36,110 bases of DNA from positions 1 to 36,110 of the forward strand of contig JACQWH010000011.1 of NCBI GenBank assembly GCA_016209345.1, written 5' to 3'. The notes beneath the pieces are model-generated. The model saw only the letters and a list, made by a program, of their open reading frames with translations. It was not told the DNA's origin and ran no database searches. The position numbers and the translations under genes were made by a program. The DNA comes from Candidatus Uhrbacteria bacterium. GTDB taxonomy: Bacteria > Patescibacteriota > Patescibacteriia > JACQRZ01. Shown piece by piece: positions 4,394 to 19,964 of this stretch (positions within the stretch are counted from its first letter, which is position 1; the number at the start of each line of letters is the position of its first letter).

Positions 4394-4434
4394 ACGGGGG
4401 TTAATGCCAGTTTTGACAATTCAAAAATTATTTT

Positions 4435-4491
4435 TGTCATCCCGGCGCGTGAGGGCCTGTCCCCGACTGGATCGGGGACCGGGATCCAGTC
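4435..4491 (+). repeat. hairpin repeat copy R2 (expanded, nested hairpins)
   Basis: TGTCATCCCGG...GTCCCCGA-CTGG-ATCGGGGAC-CGGGATCCAGTC. The outer stem is ATCCCGG/CCGGGAT and the inner 8-bp stem is GTCCCCGA/TCGGGGAC. Confidence 0.8.
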
Positions 4492-4530
4492 TATAACTAT
4501 GGCGTTTCCTTATACGGATTTATTTTTAGT

Positions 4531-4773: not shown

Positions 4774-4903
4774 ACGCAACCAGGAGAGCAGGAAGGAGCA
4801 GCTCCCTTCTCCTCCCGTGCCAATGGTTGCATTCTGGACGGTCACTACCAGAAGGTTATTCCCTCTGGCATACCGTCCTCTTTTTTTTCGCGGAGTTTTC
4901 CCC

Positions 4904-8318
<3,415 letters not shown>

Positions 8319-8679: not shown

Positions 8680-9225
8680 ATGCCAAAGCAAGTAGAGGAA
8701 CAAGGATGCCACTGGTACGCCATTCATACGAATTCAGGGTATGAAGAGGCGGTTGTCCGCAATCTCAAGCAGCGCGTGGAGTCCATGGACATGGAGGAGA
8801 AAATTTTTAATGTCCTCATTCCGACGGAAACGAAAATAAAGATAAAGAATGGCAAGCGCAAAACAGTCAAGGAAAAAATATTTCCCGGCTACGTGCTTGT
8901 ACAGATGCTTGTCACCGACGACTCGTGGTATGTCGTGAGAAATACGCCTCATGTCACCGGCTTTATCGGAAGCGGTACCACCCCCTCGCCGGTGTCAGAC
9001 CAGGAAATAGAATACCTCATGAAGCGCATGGGTGTTGAAGAGCCAAAATACGAGTTTGACCTGCCGACAAATACGCCCGTGCTCATTATTGACGGGCCGT
9101 TTAAAAATTTTGAGGGAAAGGTGCTGGAAGTGGATGCTGATAGGGGGAAGGTAAAAGTGCTCGTCACGATGTTTGGTCGCGAGACGCCTGTTGAACTCGA
9201 CTTTTTACAAATTAAAAAAACCTAA
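8680..9225 (+). CDS. nusG: transcription termination/antitermination factor NusG
   Basis: WYAIHTNSGYEEAV..., an NGN domain, then KOW (ID GPFKNFEGKVLEVD...KVKVLV.MFGRETPVEL). The start at ATG 8680 is 1 nt after the secE stop. The longer ORF from 8476 overlaps secE out of frame. Confidence 0.9.
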   Translation: MPKQVEEQGCHWYAIHTNSGYEEAVVRNLKQRVESMDMEEKIFNVLIPTETKIKIKNGKRKTVKEKIFPGYVLVQMLVTDDSWYVVRNTPHVTGFIGSGTTPSPVSDQEIEYLMKRMGVEEPKYEFDLPTNTPVLIIDGPFKNFEGKVLEVDADRGKVKVLVTMFGRETPVELDFLQIKKT

Positions 9226-13879: not shown

Positions 13880-13902
13880 GGTCTTGTCCCACTATCCCAT
13901 CC

Positions 13903-13931
13903 TTGTCATCCCGCCGAAGGGCGGGAACCAG
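13903..13931 (+). repeat. hairpin repeat copy R5 (TTGTCATCCCGCCGAAGGGCGGGAACCAG)
   Basis: It matches the reverse complement of copy R9 (17425-17453) at 29/29 positions. The stem is ATCCCGCC/GGCGGGAa with loop GAAG. It lies between gatB and the second Cys-rich gene. Confidence 0.9.
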
Positions 13932-13939
13932 ACAAAAAT

Positions 13940-15604
13940 ATGGATTCAAAAACAAAACAGTGCACCGCGTGCAATGCACATTATCAAATTGAACCGGAGG
14001 ATCTTGAGTTTTACCAAAAAATGAACGTTCCCGTACCGCGGTTGTGTCCCGACTGCCGTTTTAAGCGGAGAGCGCAGTTTCGCAATGAACGAATATTATA
14101 CAGCAGAACGTGCGACAAATGCCATAAAAACATTATTTCTGTCTACCATGAGGAATCGCCCTACACGGTGTACTGCCTTGAGTGTTTTGATGCAGACGAT
14201 TGGGATGCTTTCCAATATGGCGCTCGGTATGACGCCAGTAGACCCTTCTTTGAACAAATGGATGAGCTATTGAAAAGGGTTCCAAAAAAAGCCCTCCTTA
14301 TTACTGGCGGCGACAATAACGTGAATAGTGACTATACAAACGTGGCTGCAAATAATAAGAATTGCTATCTGCTCTTTAATACTGCTTACTGCGAAGATTC
14401 GATGTATTCGCGCGGGATCAAGGGGTGTCGCGATACGGTTGACGCCTATTTCGGTATTGAAATGGAGCGTTGCTATGAGGCAGTGAATGTTCACAAATCA
14501 TCGGGGGTCATATTCGGACACAATGTAACAAACTGCGTAGATTCATGGTTCCTCCTCTCGTGCACTGACTGCATAAACTGTTTTGGCTGTGTCAACCTCC
14601 GCCATAAGAGCTACCATTGGTTTAATGAAGAACTTTCAAAAGATGACTATGAGAAGCGGCTTACTCACGTAAAGGGAAGCTATCAACGGATGAATGAGAT
14701 GCGCAAGAAATTTGAAGCGTTCGCACTCCAATTTCCTCATCGGGAAAACAACAACATGAAATCAGAGGACTGCACCGGCGACTATCTCTTCTCATCAACG
14801 GCCTTGCGTGATTGCTATGAGATTACCGAAGGAGAAAACTGCAAATACATGTTCGCGTCCAAGAATATCAAGGACTCGTATGATACGCTTGGCTATGGCT
14901 ATGGAAGCGAACTGCTCCTTGACTGCGCGGCAACAGGGTATGCCAATCGTGTCATCGGCTCGTATTGGGTTGAGAATGGCCATGATTGCGAGTATTGCTT
15001 TTTTACGCTCTCGTCGGAATATTGTTTCGGTTGTGATGGATTAAAGAAAGGGAAATTCTGCATCCTGAACAAACAGTATAGCGAGGAAGAATATCACGCA
15101 ATTCGAAAAACAATTAGTGAGGAGCTTACGCGTGATGGTGAGTACGGATTATTTTTTCCTCCTCATATTGCACCATTTGCCTATAATGAAACAGTCGCGC
15201 AGGACTATATGCCTCTTGCAAAAGACGAGGCGCTTGCACAAGGGTTTCGCTGGCAAGAAAAGCTGCCAATGACAACAGGTGCCGAAACGCTTGCTCCCGA
15301 ATCTATCCCCGACCACATCATGCAGGTGACAAGCTCTATCACAAAGGATATCCTTGCGTGTCTTGACTGCAAGCGAAATTATAAAATTACGCCCAAGGAA
15401 TTTGCATTTTATCAAAAAATGTCGCTTCCCGTTCCTCGGCAATGCTTTAGCTGTCGGCATGTGGACAGAATCAAACGCCGTGGTCCAATGAAACTTTTTG
15501 ATCGTTCATGCGCAAAGTGTTCTAAAGATATTCGCACGACATTCGCGCCACCCCGCACGGAGATCGTGTATTGTGTTGAGTGCTATCAAACGGAAGTAAT
15601 ATAA
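13940..15604 (+). CDS. Cys-rich multi-zinc-ribbon protein of unknown function, paralog 2
   Basis: 554-aa ORF with about 34 Cys. The N-terminal module CTACNAHYQIEPEDLEFYQKMNVPVPRLCPDCRFKRRAQFRNERILYSRTCDKCHKNIISVY...VYCLECF is repeated at the C-terminus (CLDCKRNYKITPKEFAFYQKMSLPVPRQCFSCRHVDRIKRRGPMKLFDRSCAKCSKDI...VYCVECY). It is colinear with paralog 1. Confidence 0.7.
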   Translation: MDSKTKQCTACNAHYQIEPEDLEFYQKMNVPVPRLCPDCRFKRRAQFRNERILYSRTCDKCHKNIISVYHEESPYTVYCLECFDADDWDAFQYGARYDASRPFFEQMDELLKRVPKKALLITGGDNNVNSDYTNVAANNKNCYLLFNTAYCEDSMYSRGIKGCRDTVDAYFGIEMERCYEAVNVHKSSGVIFGHNVTNCVDSWFLLSCTDCINCFGCVNLRHKSYHWFNEELSKDDYEKRLTHVKGSYQRMNEMRKKFEAFALQFPHRENNNMKSEDCTGDYLFSSTALRDCYEITEGENCKYMFASKNIKDSYDTLGYGYGSELLLDCAATGYANRVIGSYWVENGHDCEYCFFTLSSEYCFGCDGLKKGKFCILNKQYSEEEYHAIRKTISEELTRDGEYGLFFPPHIAPFAYNETVAQDYMPLAKDEALAQGFRWQEKLPMTTGAETLAPESIPDHIMQVTSSITKDILACLDCKRNYKITPKEFAFYQKMSLPVPRQCFSCRHVDRIKRRGPMKLFDRSCAKCSKDIRTTFAPPRTEIVYCVECYQTEVI

Positions 15605-15613
15605 ATACGGCAT

Positions 15614-15904
15614 ATGCCAGCCGAACCATCACGACCAGATAAATCAATTTTTGACCATCCTGAGATCCCGGAACTAAATTCTATTGAAAAAATTATGTAT
15701 ATAGCAGAAATGCTTTCTATGCGCGGTGTTCATTGGGATAGCGGTATATGGAAAGTACCCATGGATATAACAAACCTTTCAAAAATTGGCCCATGGCTTA
15801 CAGTGTGTCAGCGGGAGGGTTTAAAAATTGTAGATATTACAAAAGATATGGATCCAGTAAGTGCAACTCCTTGGATGTATTTCAAGCGTGAAGATGCATT
15901 CTAG
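15614..15904 (+). CDS. hypothetical small protein
   Basis: 96-aa ORF starting 9 nt after the paralog 2 stop. It is visibly more AT-rich than its neighbours, and its last 23 nt overlap the convergent 3' end of miaA. No family recognised. Confidence 0.35.
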   Translation: MPAEPSRPDKSIFDHPEIPELNSIEKIMYIAEMLSMRGVHWDSGIWKVPMDITNLSKIGPWLTVCQREGLKIVDITKDMDPVSATPWMYFKREDAF

Positions 15905-16943
15905 CCATCATGAATTTTTTTATATTTCTAACTCCCTGAGAATATGACGTTACGTATGTAATGTCATTTTGCTTTCGATACCAGGTGAGTTGGCGGCGTG
16001 CATAGTGATGAATGGCAAATTTCAAACGTTCGATCATTTCTTTTCTTGATCCCCCGGCAGAGCCGGGCAAGCTGGCCATCTTGCCTGCCGCAGGCAGGGG
16101 TCGGGATGACAAGGAATCCAGATATTCGCTGATGAATCGGCTTTCAAGCCCCAGTCCTTGGAGCCATTTTTTTGATACACCATTTTTACGCAGTCGCTCC
16201 ACCTCACGAATCATTCCTTTTTTAATTCGCTCGTCCACTCGTTTGTCAATACGTTTGTAAAGTGTCGCTCGCGGTACATCAATGCAGAGTTGAAGGCAAT
16301 CATAGCGCTTTGTCATTCCGATCCCCTCCTTGTCATCCCGACCGGAGTGGAGGGATCTACCAGTTTGTAAATACCATTCTGACGGCTTCCTTTTTGTCGC
16401 ACGGTAAATTTCCAGCGCGCGCATAACACGCCTCTTATTATCGCGATCGTTCCAGTCGCGCATATTTGTATCAGCTTGATACAATTGTTTTTGGAGCACG
16501 GCCAGTGATTTTTTTTCTAGCCTATTTCTGTATTCATGATCCGGTGGAACACTTGGAATATCATAATCATAGAGAACAGCGCGCACATAGAGCTGTGTGC
16601 CCCCAACAAGAAATGGCACTTTCCCCCTGCTCCAAATGTCCTGAATCGCACGATCTGCACATGTTCTATAATCAGCCAGCGTGAACGGCTGGACACCGCC
16701 CTTCCACCGCTTTGGCGGCGTGACAATATCAAGGCAATGATGCCGAACAATGTTCTGCTCTTTCTTTGTTATTTTTCCGGTACAGAGGTTAAGCTCTTTG
16801 TAGATCTGTCGTGAATCGGCCGAGACAATTTCACCGTTAAACTTTTTTGCAAGCTTAATGGCCATGTCTGACTTTCCCGACGACGTCGGCCCGATGATGG
16901 CAATTACCTGGTTATCGTGTGACTTGACATTATTTTCAGCCAT
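15882..16943 (-). CDS. miaA: tRNA dimethylallyltransferase (i6A37), carrying two in-frame repeat-derived insertions
   Basis: P-loop IIGPTSSGKS, SADSRQIYKELNLCTGK, LVGGTQLY, RALEIY and YARRQLTW are all MiaA hallmarks. It is longer than E. coli MiaA at two places that coincide with repeat copies R6 and R7. Confidence 0.88.
   Translation of the reverse strand: MAENNVKSHDNQVIAIIGPTSSGKSDMAIKLAKKFNGEIVSADSRQIYKELNLCTGKITKKEQNIVRHHCLDIVTPPKRWKGGVQPFTLADYRTCADRAIQDIWSRGKVPFLVGGTQLYVRAVLYDYDIPSVPPDHEYRNRLEKKSLAVLQKQLYQADTNMRDWNDRDNKRRVMRALEIYRATKRKPSEWYLQTGRSLHSGRDDKEGIGMTKRYDCLQLCIDVPRATLYKRIDKRVDERIKKGMIREVERLRKNGVSKKWLQGLGLESRFISEYLDSLSSRPLPAAGKMASLPGSAGGSRKEMIERLKFAIHHYARRQLTWYRKQNDITYVTSYSQGVRNIKKFMMARMHLHA
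16084..16121 (-). repeat. hairpin repeat copy R6, inside the miaA coding frame
   Basis: The minus strand reads CTGGATTCCTTGTCATCCCGACCCCTGCCTGCGGCAGG (GTCATCCCG head + CCTGCC/GGCAGG hairpin). It is translated as LDSLSSRPLPAAG in miaA. Confidence 0.8.
16311..16362 (+). repeat. hairpin repeat copy R7 (compound), inside the miaA coding frame on the opposite strand
   Basis: TGTCATTCCGATCCCCTCCTTGTCATCCCGACCGGAGTGGAGGGATCTACCAG has two GTCAT[TC]CCGA heads and a GATCCC(C)TCC/GGAGGGATC stem. Its reverse complement is translated as TGRSLHSGRDDKEGIGMT in miaA. Confidence 0.8.
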
Positions 16944-17093
16944 AGTAATATGATAGTAAAGACTTTCGGCCTGTGGTTTATACTACCACGCGTAGCGGAA
17001 GGTCTTCTATAATGAACTCTCTGCACGAGGGTTTATTTAATTATTATCGAAATACTCTAAAGATACGACGCGCTGTGATCCTGCCATCTCCAC

Positions 17094-17122
17094 TTGTCAT
17101 CCCGCCGAAGGGCGGGATCCAG
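17094..17122 (+). repeat. hairpin repeat copy R8, the left terminal inverted repeat flanking the GIY-YIG gene
   Basis: TTGTCATCCCGCCGAAGGGCGGGATCCAG, ending 3 nt from the GIY-YIG stop codon (17126-17128). Confidence 0.9.
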
Positions 17123-17125
17123 TCC

Positions 17126-17416
17126 CTAAATTAAATCCTCATACAAATCCCTCCACTCTGGGTTCTGTTCCTCAATAATTCGAAGTTTCCATATCCGGTT
17201 CCATTCTTTTAGAGCCTTCTCTCGAGCGATTGCATCCTTGACGTCCTGGTATTCCTCGTAATATACAAGAAGTTTCACGTGATATTTCTGTGTAAATCCA
17301 GATATCAGCCCCTCTTTATGCTCCCATACTCGTCGCGCCAGATCATTCGTGACACCAATATAGAGCGTACCATTACGTTTGCTTGCGACGATATAGACAA
17401 AATAGGAATTCATCAT
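17126..17416 (-). CDS. GIY-YIG nuclease family protein (UPF0213/COG2827-like, stand-alone URI domain)
   Basis: 96 aa. YFVYIVASKRNGTLYIGVTNDLARRVWEHK...REKALKEW matches GIY-(x10)-YIG, the conserved R and H/E, and the C-terminal E..(I/L)K.W motif of the small bacterial GIY-YIG family. Confidence 0.85.
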   Translation of the reverse strand: MMNSYFVYIVASKRNGTLYIGVTNDLARRVWEHKEGLISGFTQKYHVKLLVYYEEYQDVKDAIAREKALKEWNRIWKLRIIEEQNPEWRDLYEDLI

Positions 17417-17424
17417 TTTTTGGC

Positions 17425-17453
17425 CTGGTTCCCGCCCTTCGGCGGGATGACAA
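17425..17453 (-). repeat. hairpin repeat copy R9, the right terminal inverted repeat flanking the GIY-YIG gene
   Basis: CTGGTTCCCGCCCTTCGGCGGGATGACAA. Its reverse complement matches R8 at 28/29 and R5 at 29/29. It begins 8 nt upstream of the GIY-YIG ATG. Confidence 0.9.
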
Positions 17454-17518
17454 GAGTGAATGGTGGAAATGACGCAGACTGTGCGCTCGGGATGACAAGA
17501 ATGAACGGTGGAAATGAC
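17444..17518 (+). repeat. two 30-nt direct repeats (45-nt period) extending from the R9 end
   Basis: GGGATGACAAGAGTGAATGGTGGAAATGAC (17444-17473) and GGGATGACAAGAATGAACGGTGGAAATGAC (17489-17518) match at 28/30. Confidence 0.8.
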
Positions 17519-17586
17519 AAAGGATGAAAATTAATCAGGAACAAGCTGGCGTAATATTGATATCCGCATCCTCAACCACGCAACCA

Positions 17587-18495
17587 TTAAAAATAGCAAC
17601 CCCAAGAATCCATATCAACCGATCTGACAAACGACAAGTCATCTTTGATTTTCTTCTTCCAATAGTATCCTTTATCCTCATCCACGGTAAGCATCTCAAA
17701 ATAGCTTTCGTCGTTCGCTTGAGAGGGAAACATATCTTCAGGAAAAACATCCTCCGCTGAGGAAATGAGATTATTCAATCGAAGATATGTTTGAAGCATC
17801 GCCTTTGCCGAGCGAGGAACGTGTATAATGAGCCCGCTGGGAATTTCAGTTATCTCGCAGTCAAAATTTGGAGTCGAATTATCTAGACGATTATTGAATA
17901 AAGGGATTGGGATTGTGGGCGGTTTTTGATAAAAAATATTATTTGAGTATAAATAAATATTGATGAAAAAAAGTGTAGCCGAGAATATGGCTATAATGAT
18001 ATTATATCGTACTTTCCTCCGCCGTGAATAATAGAGAGGTACTAAGCAGAGCGCGCAAACGCTAACGATTAAAAAAAATAAGTTTGCGGAAGTATAGAAA
18101 ATATCTTGGAGTGGTCTAGAATAACCAAATGCAGGATTATAATCGAAAATACTCTCAAGTGTGTAGTTTATGCCGCCTGCGAGAAGAAAAAATAGAGCGG
18201 CGGAGATATAGAACGTATAGACAAAAGATGTTGCTTTTGTTCGTGTAAAGAAGCGCCTAAGCATAAGGACTAGAGCACATATGCCTATCACCGCGACGAC
18301 ATAGAGCAAGACAACTCTTCTTAAAGGGTACGAATCACGAATAGCCGAAAGAGAATCGGTCAACTCCAACATTAGATATGTCCCCACAACAACAAAAAAA
18401 ATTGCAGAGATGATAAAAAAAATGTTCAACACGAATATGAAAAAATGCTTCACTGTTTTTATGATCATACCGCTATTGTAGAATAAAGAATCCAC
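17587..18495 (-). CDS. hypothetical polytopic membrane protein with a C-terminal soluble domain
   Basis: 302-aa ORF with about 6 hydrophobic helices in the first ~200 aa. It lies in a clearly AT-rich stretch. No family recognised. Confidence 0.5.
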   Translation of the reverse strand: MDSLFYNSGMIIKTVKHFFIFVLNIFFIISAIFFVVVGTYLMLELTDSLSAIRDSYPLRRVVLLYVVAVIGICALVLMLRRFFTRTKATSFVYTFYISAALFFLLAGGINYTLESIFDYNPAFGYSRPLQDIFYTSANLFFLIVSVCALCLVPLYYSRRRKVRYNIIIAIFSATLFFINIYLYSNNIFYQKPPTIPIPLFNNRLDNSTPNFDCEITEIPSGLIIHVPRSAKAMLQTYLRLNNLISSAEDVFPEDMFPSQANDESYFEMLTVDEDKGYYWKKKIKDDLSFVRSVDMDSWGCYF

Positions 18496-18578
18496 TCAAG
18501 CAAGCGAATGCCACGAAAGCATGAACTGTGATCGTACTTGATGCGCGATCCAACCATAAGATTAAAATCATTTTTAGC

Positions 18579-18632
18579 ATGGATCCCAGCCGGAGTTTAT
18601 CCCGAGTATTTCCGAGGGACAGGGATGACAGG
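18579..18632 (-). repeat. hairpin repeat copy R11 (degenerate), overlapping the miaB 3' end
   Basis: The minus strand reads CCTGTCATCCCTGTCCCTCGGAAATACTCGGGATAAACTCCGGCTGGGATCCAT (GTCATCCC head ... GGGATCCA tail). It encodes the last residues PVIPVPRKYSG and the stop of miaB. Confidence 0.7.
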
Positions 18633-19964
18633 GGCGGAGCCATACAATATCCACTCCACCGCGCGGTCGATGGTGACGCTCTGTATCGTGCCGATGAACG
18701 ATTCATCGCCTCTGAAAATAACGCGCTTCATCTCTCGCGAGTTTCCACTGCAAAGTCCCTTTTCGCACGACTCAACCAAAACCGATACGGTGCGGCCGAC
18801 ATATGCCTGATTCTTGCGAAGCGCTGTTTCCTCCATCAACCTTTGCAACTCATTCCAGCGTCGCTTCTTCTCCAGACGTGAAACATCGTCTTTATACATC
18901 CGCGCGCCGGCGGTGCCGGAACGAACGGAATATTGCGCGGTGTAGGCAATGTCAAAGTCGCATTCCCTATACAAATCCATTGTCTGTTCAAAATCCTCAT
19001 CTGTTTCACCGCTAAATCCAACAATAATGTCAGTGCCCAGCGCGATGCCGGGTTTTACTGCACGAATCTCTTTAACTTTATCAATATAATACTCTCGCGT
19101 ATAGGGGCGATTCATACGCTTCAGCACCGTATTACTCCCCGCTTGCACGGGCAGATGAATATAGTTGATGTCCTTTGGCATTGTAAGCGCCGCGACGGTC
19201 TGCTCATCCATATACTGTGGGTGTGGCGCAGTAAAATGAATCCTTTCTATTCCATCAATCTGATTAACCTCCCACATGAGCGCCGCAAAGCCATTTTTTG
19301 AGTAATCAAGGGGATTGTCTTTTGAAAAATTTTCTTTGTCTGGCGGATTATACAAATTAACGCACTGTCCCAAAAGCGTTATCTCAAGGACACCTGAGAC
19401 GGCAAGACCGCGCGCCTCATCAAGCACATCAATAAGCGGCCGATCTTTTTGCCGACCGCGGGCATAGGGGACCACACAGTATGTGCAAAATTTATTGCAC
19501 CCATTGCTAATCGCAAGATACGCCTGAAATGTATTCGAATAGGAGGGTGCGATTTTCAGATAATGATCGTACTCATCTCCCACCCCGGACGGATCAATCA
19601 ACGTTGGATTGAGCCCGCTCAAAGCTCGCGGAAGATGAATCATCTCCTCGGTTGGAAAGAACAAATCAACAGCCGAGAGTCGCTCCCTGATCTTACCGTC
19701 ATGATCGCGCCCCGCCATACACCCCGTGATTGCCACGATGAGATTGGGATTGTTTTTTTTGAGTTGCTCAAGAGTGCGATGAATACCGTATACACGATCT
19801 TCCGCCTTTTGACGCACAGCGCATGTGTTATAGATCAACACATCTGCCCGCTCCTCATCATCCGTGCACACAAGACCGCTCCGAGTCAAAATTGAGCTTA
19901 ATCGTTCAGAATCCGACTTGTTCATCTGGCATCCGAATGTGATGATTTTATACATTCCGGGCAT
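18597..19964 (-). CDS. miaB: tRNA-i6A37 methylthiotransferase (radical SAM MTTase)
   Basis: N-terminal UPF0004 domain (TFGCQMNKSDSE, YNTCAVRQKAE), radical-SAM CNKFCTYCVVP, and a C-terminal TRAM domain (VGRTVSVLVE...). An alternative start is at ATG 19955. Confidence 0.9.
   Translation of the reverse strand: MPGMYKIITFGCQMNKSDSERLSSILTRSGLVCTDDEERADVLIYNTCAVRQKAEDRVYGIHRTLEQLKKNNPNLIVAITGCMAGRDHDGKIRERLSAVDLFFPTEEMIHLPRALSGLNPTLIDPSGVGDEYDHYLKIAPSYSNTFQAYLAISNGCNKFCTYCVVPYARGRQKDRPLIDVLDEARGLAVSGVLEITLLGQCVNLYNPPDKENFSKDNPLDYSKNGFAALMWEVNQIDGIERIHFTAPHPQYMDEQTVAALTMPKDINYIHLPVQAGSNTVLKRMNRPYTREYYIDKVKEIRAVKPGIALGTDIIVGFSGETDEDFEQTMDLYRECDFDIAYTAQYSVRSGTAGARMYKDDVSRLEKKRRWNELQRLMEETALRKNQAYVGRTVSVLVESCEKGLCSGNSREMKRVIFRGDESFIGTIQSVTIDRAVEWILYGSAPVIPVPRKYSG

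Follow-up and report, generated by a model that had tools for sequence, protein, structure and literature searches.

A 36,110-nt stretch of DNA from a Candidatus Uhrbacteria bacterium (GenBank assembly GCA_016209345.1, contig JACQWH010000011.1, positions 1 to 36,110; hereafter called the window) carries a small gene for a GIY-YIG nuclease set between inverted copies of a short hairpin. Judging from sequence and predicted fold, we consider it very likely that this locus is an Ssn/SRM unit, in which a GIY-YIG nuclease is paired with a dispersed hairpin, the Ssn-related motif (SRM), and that the two flanking 29-mers and an orphan copy at 13903 are its cognate SRMs. The Ssn/SRM system is known. 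What is new is a member from a Candidatus Uhrbacteria-like genome of the candidate phyla radiation (CPR), equipped with its own hairpin variant.

The partnership of a GIY-YIG enzyme with a hairpin repeat has been characterised both biochemically and genetically (Chenal et al. 2025, Nat Commun 16:2388; PMC11893778), and the original prediction, made from the letters of the window and aware of no described pairing of a GIY-YIG protein with repeats of this type, was mistaken on this point. SsnA of Neisseria meningitidis is a 94-aa protein of the cd10448 family (GIY-YIG_unchar_3), its repeat, NTS, reads CGTCATTCCCGCGMAVGCGGGAATCYRG, and the degenerate SRM was defined in the same work (PMC11893778). 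Purified SsnA binds the NTS only as single-stranded DNA (ssDNA) and only on one strand, has no action on double-stranded DNA (dsDNA) or RNA, and makes its cut a few nucleotides to the 5' side of the motif; each of the substitutions Y6A, Y17A and E64A abolishes cleavage (PMC11893778). A GTC on the 5' side of the stem is important for cutting, and a C on its 3' side for binding (PMC11893778). The role shown in Neisseria is restriction of incoming transforming ssDNA, with NTS-bearing DNA transforming 5-fold better in an ssnA knockout (PMC11893778). Of the SsnA homologs, 71% lie near an SRM and 42% have one on either side, and intragenic NTS copies are rare in Neisseria (2%; PMC11893778). Most repeat-rich genomes carry the gene: an ssn gene is present in 81% of genomes with more than 200 SRMs (PMC11893778). 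Chenal et al. also pointed out the NTS-ssnA-NTS architecture, likened it to IS200/IS605 and to REP/BIME/RAYT, proposed domestication and raised an origin from an element like an insertion sequence (IS) as a hypothesis (PMC11893778). Patescibacteria are not mentioned in the main text of that paper, and our literature search found no Ssn paper later than Chenal et al. 2025.

The window protein has the features of an Ssn enzyme. It is encoded by a minus-strand open reading frame (ORF) of 96 aa at 17126-17416 in the ORF listing of the window, and Pfam confirms the GIY-YIG assignment first made from the sequence alone (PF01541, residues 5-75, E = 6e-17); a second match, to T5orf172, is weak. Pfam finds no domain other than GIY-YIG, and the protein falls in the range of single-domain Ssn-type proteins, about 94-100 aa. 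The SsnA ortholog of N. gonorrhoeae is 59% identical to it in a pairwise BLASTP alignment (53/90 residues, E = 2e-40), and tblastn of the window protein against the N. gonorrhoeae chromosome yields E = 3e-29, far below the E < 1e-10 used by Chenal et al. Residues Y8, Y19 and E66 correspond in the alignment to Y6, Y17 and E64, the published catalytic residues of SsnA, and are invariant among 26 homologs in the family alignment. We therefore call the gene ssn; the cd10448 label for its product expresses likeness, on the basis of PF01541 and homology to SsnA.

Structure and taxonomic spread agree with this picture. The AlphaFold2 (AF2) model of the window protein is one compact GIY-YIG domain (pLDDT 94), and its fold matches among solved structures are only UPF0213 proteins, Slx1 and the N-terminal domain of UvrC. 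That search returned no Ssn structure, only distant relatives. BH0048 (1zg2) and EF2693 (1ywl) of UPF0213, Slx1 and the UvrC N-terminal domain share the GIY-YIG fold, but at about 23% identity (E ~1e-6); neither a function nor a link to hairpins is known for the UPF0213 structures, and Slx1 and UvrC are repair nucleases built from several domains or subunits. The nearest proteins come from Candidatus Uhrbacteria, the closest (P0002) being 93% identical, and homologs at 60-75% identity number in the thousands across many phyla. Several called homologs carry N-terminal extensions, for example SFPRKRES or PAFAGMT, that are translated hairpin.

The 29-mer TTGTCATCCCGCCGAAGGGCGGGATCCAG occurs exactly at 17094-17122 (plus strand) and with one mismatch at 17425-17453 (minus strand) and at 13903-13931 (plus strand), in a window where 100 shuffles predict none. 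The 29-mer search thus bears out both the inverted flanks of the gene, which match at 28/29 positions, and the claimed identity of the orphan copy at 13903-13931 with the right flank. Spacing is tight, with the left copy 3 nt past the ssn stop codon and the right copy 8 nt ahead of the first ATG. The original prediction gave each flank an 8-bp stem, which is correct for the left copy: as ssDNA it folds into an 8-bp stem with a GAAG loop (-9.7 kcal/mol, z = -3.5), whereas the right copy forms a 7-bp stem with an A.A mismatch at its base and the same GAAG loop (-9.3 kcal/mol). Beyond the 29-mers, the inverted repeat around ssn extends imperfectly to 47 nt with 83% complementarity (17084-17130 and 17417-17463).

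These copies also fit the published definition. The SRM pattern HGTCWYN(0-2)YYVSBRHN(0-5)WNVSBRGN(0-2)RNCYNB matches at 17095-17122 (+), 17425-17452 (-) and 13904-13931 (+), three matches where 100 dinucleotide shuffles give 0.12, and the strict Neisseria NTS has no match in the window. All three intact hairpins (3/3) keep the GTC head and the post-stem C. The 36 kb hold these three and about five degenerate SRM copies, which tempers the picture of orphan copies scattered through the window: one orphan is intact (13903-13931), and the others are long or degenerate variants (Table 1).

Table 1. The ssn gene and its associated SRM-type sequences, with positions in the window
Feature	Position	Strand	Basis
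ssn gene, Ssn-family (cd10448-like) single-domain GIY-YIG nuclease, 96 aa	17126..17416	-	ORF, PF01541, SsnA homology, AF2 fold
Upstream SRM hairpin; motif strand is the ssn sense strand; ends 8 nt before the ATG	17425..17453	-	29-mer and SRM pattern
Downstream SRM hairpin, inverted copy; motif strand is plus; 3 nt after the stop	17094..17122	+	29-mer and SRM pattern
Orphan SRM between gatB and a 554-aa ORF, 8 nt before the ATG of that ORF	13903..13931	+	29-mer, SRM pattern
Partial copy in direct orientation (31 nt, 94%) of 17443-17473, which holds the outer end of the upstream SRM and adjoining flank	17488..17518	-	Repeat search
Long SRM-like variant; TGTCATCCCGG...CCGGGATCCAG boxes around a nested second hairpin	4434..4492	+	ssDNA fold, -14.9 kcal/mol
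Degenerate long SRM-like element, giving the last 12 MiaB codons (APVIPVPRKYSG*)	18580..18638	-	miaB-side edge of the ~1.65-kb insertion
Degenerate SRM-derived in-frame insert in miaA, peptide QTGRSLHSGRDDKEGIGMTK	16308..16367	+	Absent from most MiaA homologs
Second SRM-derived in-frame insert in miaA, peptide LDSLSSRPLPAAGKMASLPGSAGGS	16047..16121	-	Absent from most MiaA homologs

The association of gene and hairpin holds far beyond this genome. We fetched 80 loci from species-representative genomes; counts made with a finder that looks for boxes plus a stem refer to 81 loci and 84 genes. By record title, the loci come from Verrucomicrobiota, Pseudomonadota, Planctomycetes, Latescibacterota, Terriglobia, Ignavibacteria/Bacteroidetes, Omnitrophota, Deltaproteobacteria, Dehalococcoidia, Calditrichaeota and Patescibacteria-group lineages. 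In their flanks, nearly all loci show TGTCATTCCCGCGAAAGCGGGAATCCAG shortly ahead of the ATG and CTGGATTCCCGC....GCGGGAATGACA right behind the stop codon. The finder places the motif upstream of 64/84 genes (median gap ~13 nt) and its inverted copy downstream of 59/84 (median gap ~3 nt), with both flanks present in 52/84. Flanking of homologs, proposed as a check on the single locus, is thus a property of the family across phyla, and together with the SsnA precedent (PMC11893778) it upholds the prediction that the hairpin has this small GIY-YIG protein as its trans-acting partner. The published SRM pattern is less sensitive than the finder, with at least one match within 100 nt of 47/84 genes.

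Hairpin bracketing of ssn-type genes is not due to chance. A motif-free test scored the 120 nt upstream of each gene against the reverse-complemented 120 nt downstream, with 1,580 control positions for reference. The inverted-repeat score exceeded the 99th control percentile in 57/80 genes (Mann-Whitney p = 5e-39), in a test that is blind to loci whose two hairpins differ in stem. When tight inverted pairs were sought around random positions of the same loci with the published SRM motif, 0/16,207 had both flanks, which excludes flanking by chance.

The hairpin itself is under selection as DNA. A consensus of 301 family elements reads TGTCATTCCCGCGAAAGCGGGAATCCAG and is in essence the Neisseria NTS. 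In the stem, 97-100% of pairs at each position are Watson-Crick (86% at the outermost pair), with several compensatory pair types and G.T pairs at no more than 2%, and the loop is GAAR on the motif strand in every class of copy. Solo SRMs are more similar to the SRMs that flank the gene in their own locus than to gene-flanking SRMs elsewhere (0.87 vs 0.76, p = 6e-21). The exact SRM variant of the window recurs as 21 solo or doublet copies in metagenome stretches, with no ssn gene adjoining any of them.

These data bear on whether the hairpins are only signals at the RNA or expression level, such as a terminator, an mRNA stabiliser or an autoregulatory operator, or whether the bracketing is an accident of repeat density. 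REP-type hairpins can stabilise mRNAs, which speaks for a signal, as does position: the upstream copy stands 8 nt from the ssn ATG and the orphan 8 nt from the ATG of another gene. We nevertheless judge this whole reading highly improbable. G.T pairs, which RNA stems tolerate, are at or below 2% in the family, and neither the 29-mer in the shuffled window nor flanking pairs at random positions appear as chance would require. SsnA, moreover, does not bind RNA (PMC11893778).

Terminators, promoters and RNA elements were also tried individually as identities for the window hairpins and rejected. The stems lack a trailing T-run, the hairpins are not among the terminators called, and they contain no promoter-like site; the window has no Rfam match, and G.T pairs are nearly absent.

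Orientation is conserved as well. By the published motif, the hairpins are arranged F/R in 19 genes and R/F in one, so that the motif strand upstream is the sense strand of the gene in the dominant arrangement of the locus set, as in the window; the gonococcal locus is reversed. In that ssnA locus (L085, 2860-3310; N. gonorrhoeae NZ_CP119142.1), an inverted copy lies ~110 nt upstream and the motif strand directly follows the stop codon. The L085 reading frame is conserved and has no in-frame ATG, and a frameshift is possible. NZ_CP119142.1 is a 2.17-Mb chromosome filed as a plasmid.

Tight spacing from SRM to ATG and from stop to SRM, kept across phyla, is easier to reconcile with inheritance as a single unit than with many independent insertions. 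The same spacing counts against a free-standing GIY-YIG homing endonuclease gene that inserted into existing hairpin doublets as its double-strand target. GIY-YIG domains are typical of homing endonucleases, and F...R doublets that enclose no gene are common and could serve as homing sites. The window protein even matches the group I intron endonuclease family TIGR01453 of NCBIfam, albeit weakly (E = 1e-4, 22 bits against a curated cut-off of 56). Unlike GIY-YIG homing endonucleases of the I-TevI or Seg type, however, this 96-aa protein has no separate DNA-binding domain, and it shows no phage match and no intron or intein context; its characterised relative SsnA neither binds nor cuts dsDNA (PMC11893778). 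We therefore give homing very little credence.

Membership in the Ssn/SRM system is instead marked by shared detail. The window and Neisseria have in common a single-domain GIY-YIG protein of ~95 aa with catalytic Tyr, Tyr and Glu, oriented boxes, GTC on the 5' side of the stem and C(C)AG on its 3' side, and inverted copies on both sides of the gene with more copies dispersed. They differ in host, here a Candidatus Uhrbacteria-like CPR bacterium, and in hairpin, which is ATCCCGCC-GAAG-GGCGGGAT in the window and ATTCCCGC-GMAV-GCGGGAAT in Neisseria. A further difference is that the window has SRM-derived sequence in frame in miaA and at the end of miaB.

Several points weigh against this assignment and belong beside it. 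The window stem ATCCCGCC differs from the Neisseria stem ATTCCCGC, and activity on the window variant is predicted by homology. SsnA specificity is partly sequence-dependent and differs between homologs (PMC11893778), so the exact cut position and an ssDNA-only behaviour are extrapolations here. The protein comparison used the gonococcal genomic ortholog in place of the N. meningitidis protein, and SRM abundance was read from 36 kb of the genome. Restriction of transformation is known from one species (PMC11893778), and the window has no bearing on competence.

How the unit would work can be projected from SsnA. By homology, the Ssn protein of the window is expected to bind its hairpin only in ssDNA, on the TGTCATCCCG...CGGGATCCAG strand, and may recognise the folded hairpin together with the asymmetric flanks of the TGTCATCCCG...CCAG strand. 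The protein would need the GTC on the 5' side of the stem and the C on its 3' side, and the motif strand would be hydrolysed a few nucleotides 5' of the motif. Predicted cuts fall on the plus strand near 17090 (about 17089-17092) and on the minus strand near 17456 (about 17455-17458), both just outside the unit, and a further plus-strand cut is predicted just 5' of 13903. Because the SRMs are inverted and only the motif strand would be cut, each strand has one cleavable site, at its 5' edge; excision in the style of IS200/IS605, where one strand is cut at both ends, is consequently not available.

The cellular role is probably cleavage of SRM-bearing ssDNA, either transforming or exposed in replication or recombination, which would modulate recombination. 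CPR bacteria are thought to rely on DNA uptake. As to origin, an IS-like or selfish ancestry is the best reading of a gene placed between its own sites, and the SRM-ssn-SRM unit appears to have moved or been duplicated as a block during evolution. Ssn as the catalyst of that movement is a hypothesis. Propagation of the hairpin by the nuclease, as originally suggested, would likewise go beyond the activity demonstrated for SsnA, strand-specific cleavage of ssDNA 5' of the hairpin.

We nonetheless weighed whether SRM-ssn-SRM is an autonomous mobile element, in which Ssn mobilises the unit and spreads solo SRMs and SRM-bracketed non-coding units, analogous to miniature inverted-repeat transposable elements (MITEs) or REPINs. 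This is possible, though on balance doubtful. In its fullest form, the unit is or recently was a mobile element of a new mechanistic class: its ends would be set by GIY-YIG ssDNA cuts outside each hairpin, its cargo would be a 302-aa ORF, and it would seed solo hairpins, some in frame inside essential genes of a reduced CPR genome. We regard that scenario, too, as tentative and rather unlikely.

The junction of miaB and miaA offers one argument for movement. In a close Uhrbacteria relative (L082), the two genes overlap, which makes this an empty site, and MiaB is 91% identical to that of the window up to residue 443. In the window (16944-18638), ~1.65 kb is inserted at miaB|miaA, comprising the ssn unit and the 302-aa ORF (17587-18495, no Pfam match) and bracketed by outward-facing SRMs; homology with L082 breaks 8 nt 5' of an SRM box. 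After residue 443 (compared with L082 5940-6060), the last 12 codons of the window MiaB derive from a decayed long SRM. This element (18580-18638) has no significant ssDNA fold, and a similar long variant lies at 8702-8751 of L082. SRM remnants also stand in frame inside miaA.

Other genomes add signs of movement and of duplication. In a second Uhrbacteria genome (L081), ssn comes with the same SRM variant and has unrelated neighbouring genes. Two contigs of one Desulfacyla metagenome-assembled genome (MAG) hold a 517-bp ssn unit (L035/L074) that is 98.6% identical, has sharp ends and sits in unrelated flanks, and in another MAG (L045/L070) the homology of paralogs starts 2 nt 5' of TGTCATCCCC, about at the reported Ssn cut. 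Genes occur in multiple or decayed copies, with three in L003, tandem copies in L060 and a frameshifted one in L005. There are 37 doublets in which F...R SRM pairs surround short non-coding cargo, and in a Dehalococcoidia locus (L039, 4364-4934) three MITE-like units of ~137 nt stand shortly before ssn, each with a conserved non-coding core enclosed by an SRM and its inverted copy. The resemblance of solo SRMs to the gene-flanking SRMs of their own locus points the same way, and an IS-like origin has been proposed as a hypothesis by Chenal et al. (PMC11893778).

Set against this are the chemistry and the distribution of the gene. If SsnA-type cutting is confined to the motif strand, an inverted pair gives one cut per strand, and IS200/IS605 excision needs two on one strand. 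GIY-YIG enzymes hydrolyse DNA, and neither covalent intermediates nor strand transfer is known from them, which counts against Ssn as the mobilising agent. The L035/L074 unit (4868-5384) shows no target-site duplication. Its ends are formed by a 20-nt terminal inverted repeat (GCATTACCAGTTTGTTAAAG) that lies ~60 nt beyond the SRMs, so it could have been mobilised by a different system. Identical proteins found on many contigs (P0042, P0062) stem from the same locus in every sample examined, and the 36-kb window has a single ssn copy. Of 72,556 plasmid records only 32 contain the gene, most of them chromids or wrongly labelled chromosomes, and none of 50,697 phage records does; the unit is thus not obviously vectored by either. 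Taken together, the empty site and the sharply bounded duplicates are compatible with mobility driven by Ssn, whose part as the mobilising enzyme is a hypothesis.

The layout recalls several known elements, each of which differs in its enzyme or its ends. In REPtrons, the units of repetitive extragenic palindromic (REP) sequences or bacterial interspersed mosaic elements (BIMEs) with REP-associated tyrosine transposases (RAYTs, TnpA-REP), one nuclease gene likewise sits between inverted short hairpin repeats that are also dispersed, clustered and paired, and a hairpin plus short 5' head is recognised in ssDNA. The likeness to REPtrons that the original prediction drew stands for this geometry, a nuclease gene between inverted dispersed hairpins, and for the layout alone: RAYTs are Y1 HUH transposases with covalent DNA intermediates, whereas the window enzyme is a hydrolytic GIY-YIG nuclease in which Pfam finds no Y1 HUH transposase domain, only GIY-YIG and the weak T5orf172 match. 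REP heads are GTAG-like, and the window head is GTC. IS200/IS605 elements are also small, have hairpin ends recognised as ssDNA and cleaved nearby, and leave no target-site duplication, but their end hairpins share a strand and a Y1 transposase excises a single-stranded circle; the window hairpins are inverted with motif strands opposite, and the GIY-YIG enzyme would cut one strand per site.

Other elements are comparable in part. Like a classical IS or MITE, the window unit has inverted termini; the ssn protein has no transposase domain, and, in contrast to these elements, no direct duplication flanks the recent L035/L074 unit. Of the Neisseria dRS3 repeats and NIMEs, dRS3 (ATTCCC-N8-GGGAAT) is the palindromic core of our cross-phylum consensus, while the window copies, ATCCCGCC-GAAG-GGCGGGAT, contain no strict dRS3 match. 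Rickettsia palindromic elements, too, are inserted in frame in protein-coding genes, and copies in the window resemble them in this respect.

The original prediction was a correct rediscovery of the Ssn/SRM system, reached independently from bare sequence. The window adds to this system a Candidatus Uhrbacteria-like CPR genome and a hairpin variant of its own, and efforts to collect Ssn/SRM pairs with new ssDNA cleavage specificities could profit from it. Mobility by a hydrolytic ssDNA nuclease, if true, would be a new transposition chemistry and would explain both the hundreds of hairpin copies and their entry into coding sequences. The empty and occupied miaB|miaA junctions and the sharply bounded paralogous units are concrete substrates for this question.

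Several smaller observations concern SRMs and their surroundings. Likeness of the orphan SRM to the ssn 5' leader continues through the spacer to the start codon (13902-13942 vs 17414-17454, 41 nt, 93%). The 554-aa ORF behind the orphan is conserved, and L082 has a 50-nt long SRM variant (8702-8751) at the orthologous gatB-side position. The gene miaA occupies 15882-16943 on the minus strand, and a few MiaA homologs hold different inserts with 'GMT' at the first site. In two other relatives (L083 and L084), a Fic gene lies immediately upstream of miaA.

Half-sites and clusters also occur. The duplicate at 17488-17518 creates an array of SRM 5' boxes outside the ssn unit, and direct-repeat arrays of the SRM outer half (GGGATGACA plus ~10-35 nt) are found outside the unit at L006, L026 and L049 as well, sometimes on both sides; slippage, nested insertion or repair footprints are possible origins. 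The L035/L074 unit has an extra hairpin between its terminal inverted repeat and the SRM. An Ignavibacteria MAG (L044, 7944-8607) contains a BIME-like cluster of at least eight 69-nt units in tandem, in each of which an SRM is joined by a second conserved hairpin. In one metagenome lineage (L107, 1-6294), ssn lies between a primase/HTH_17 block and a large serine recombinase, beside a MiaB-like gene, a context that suggests that this ssn is carried on an integrative element.

Elsewhere in the window, the GyrB ORF (4947-8318, plus strand) encodes 1123 aa, with an intein splicing domain (PF14890, residues ~500-887) separating the GyrB domain from the Toprim domain. GyrB of L082 is listed at 673 aa and apparently lacks the intein.

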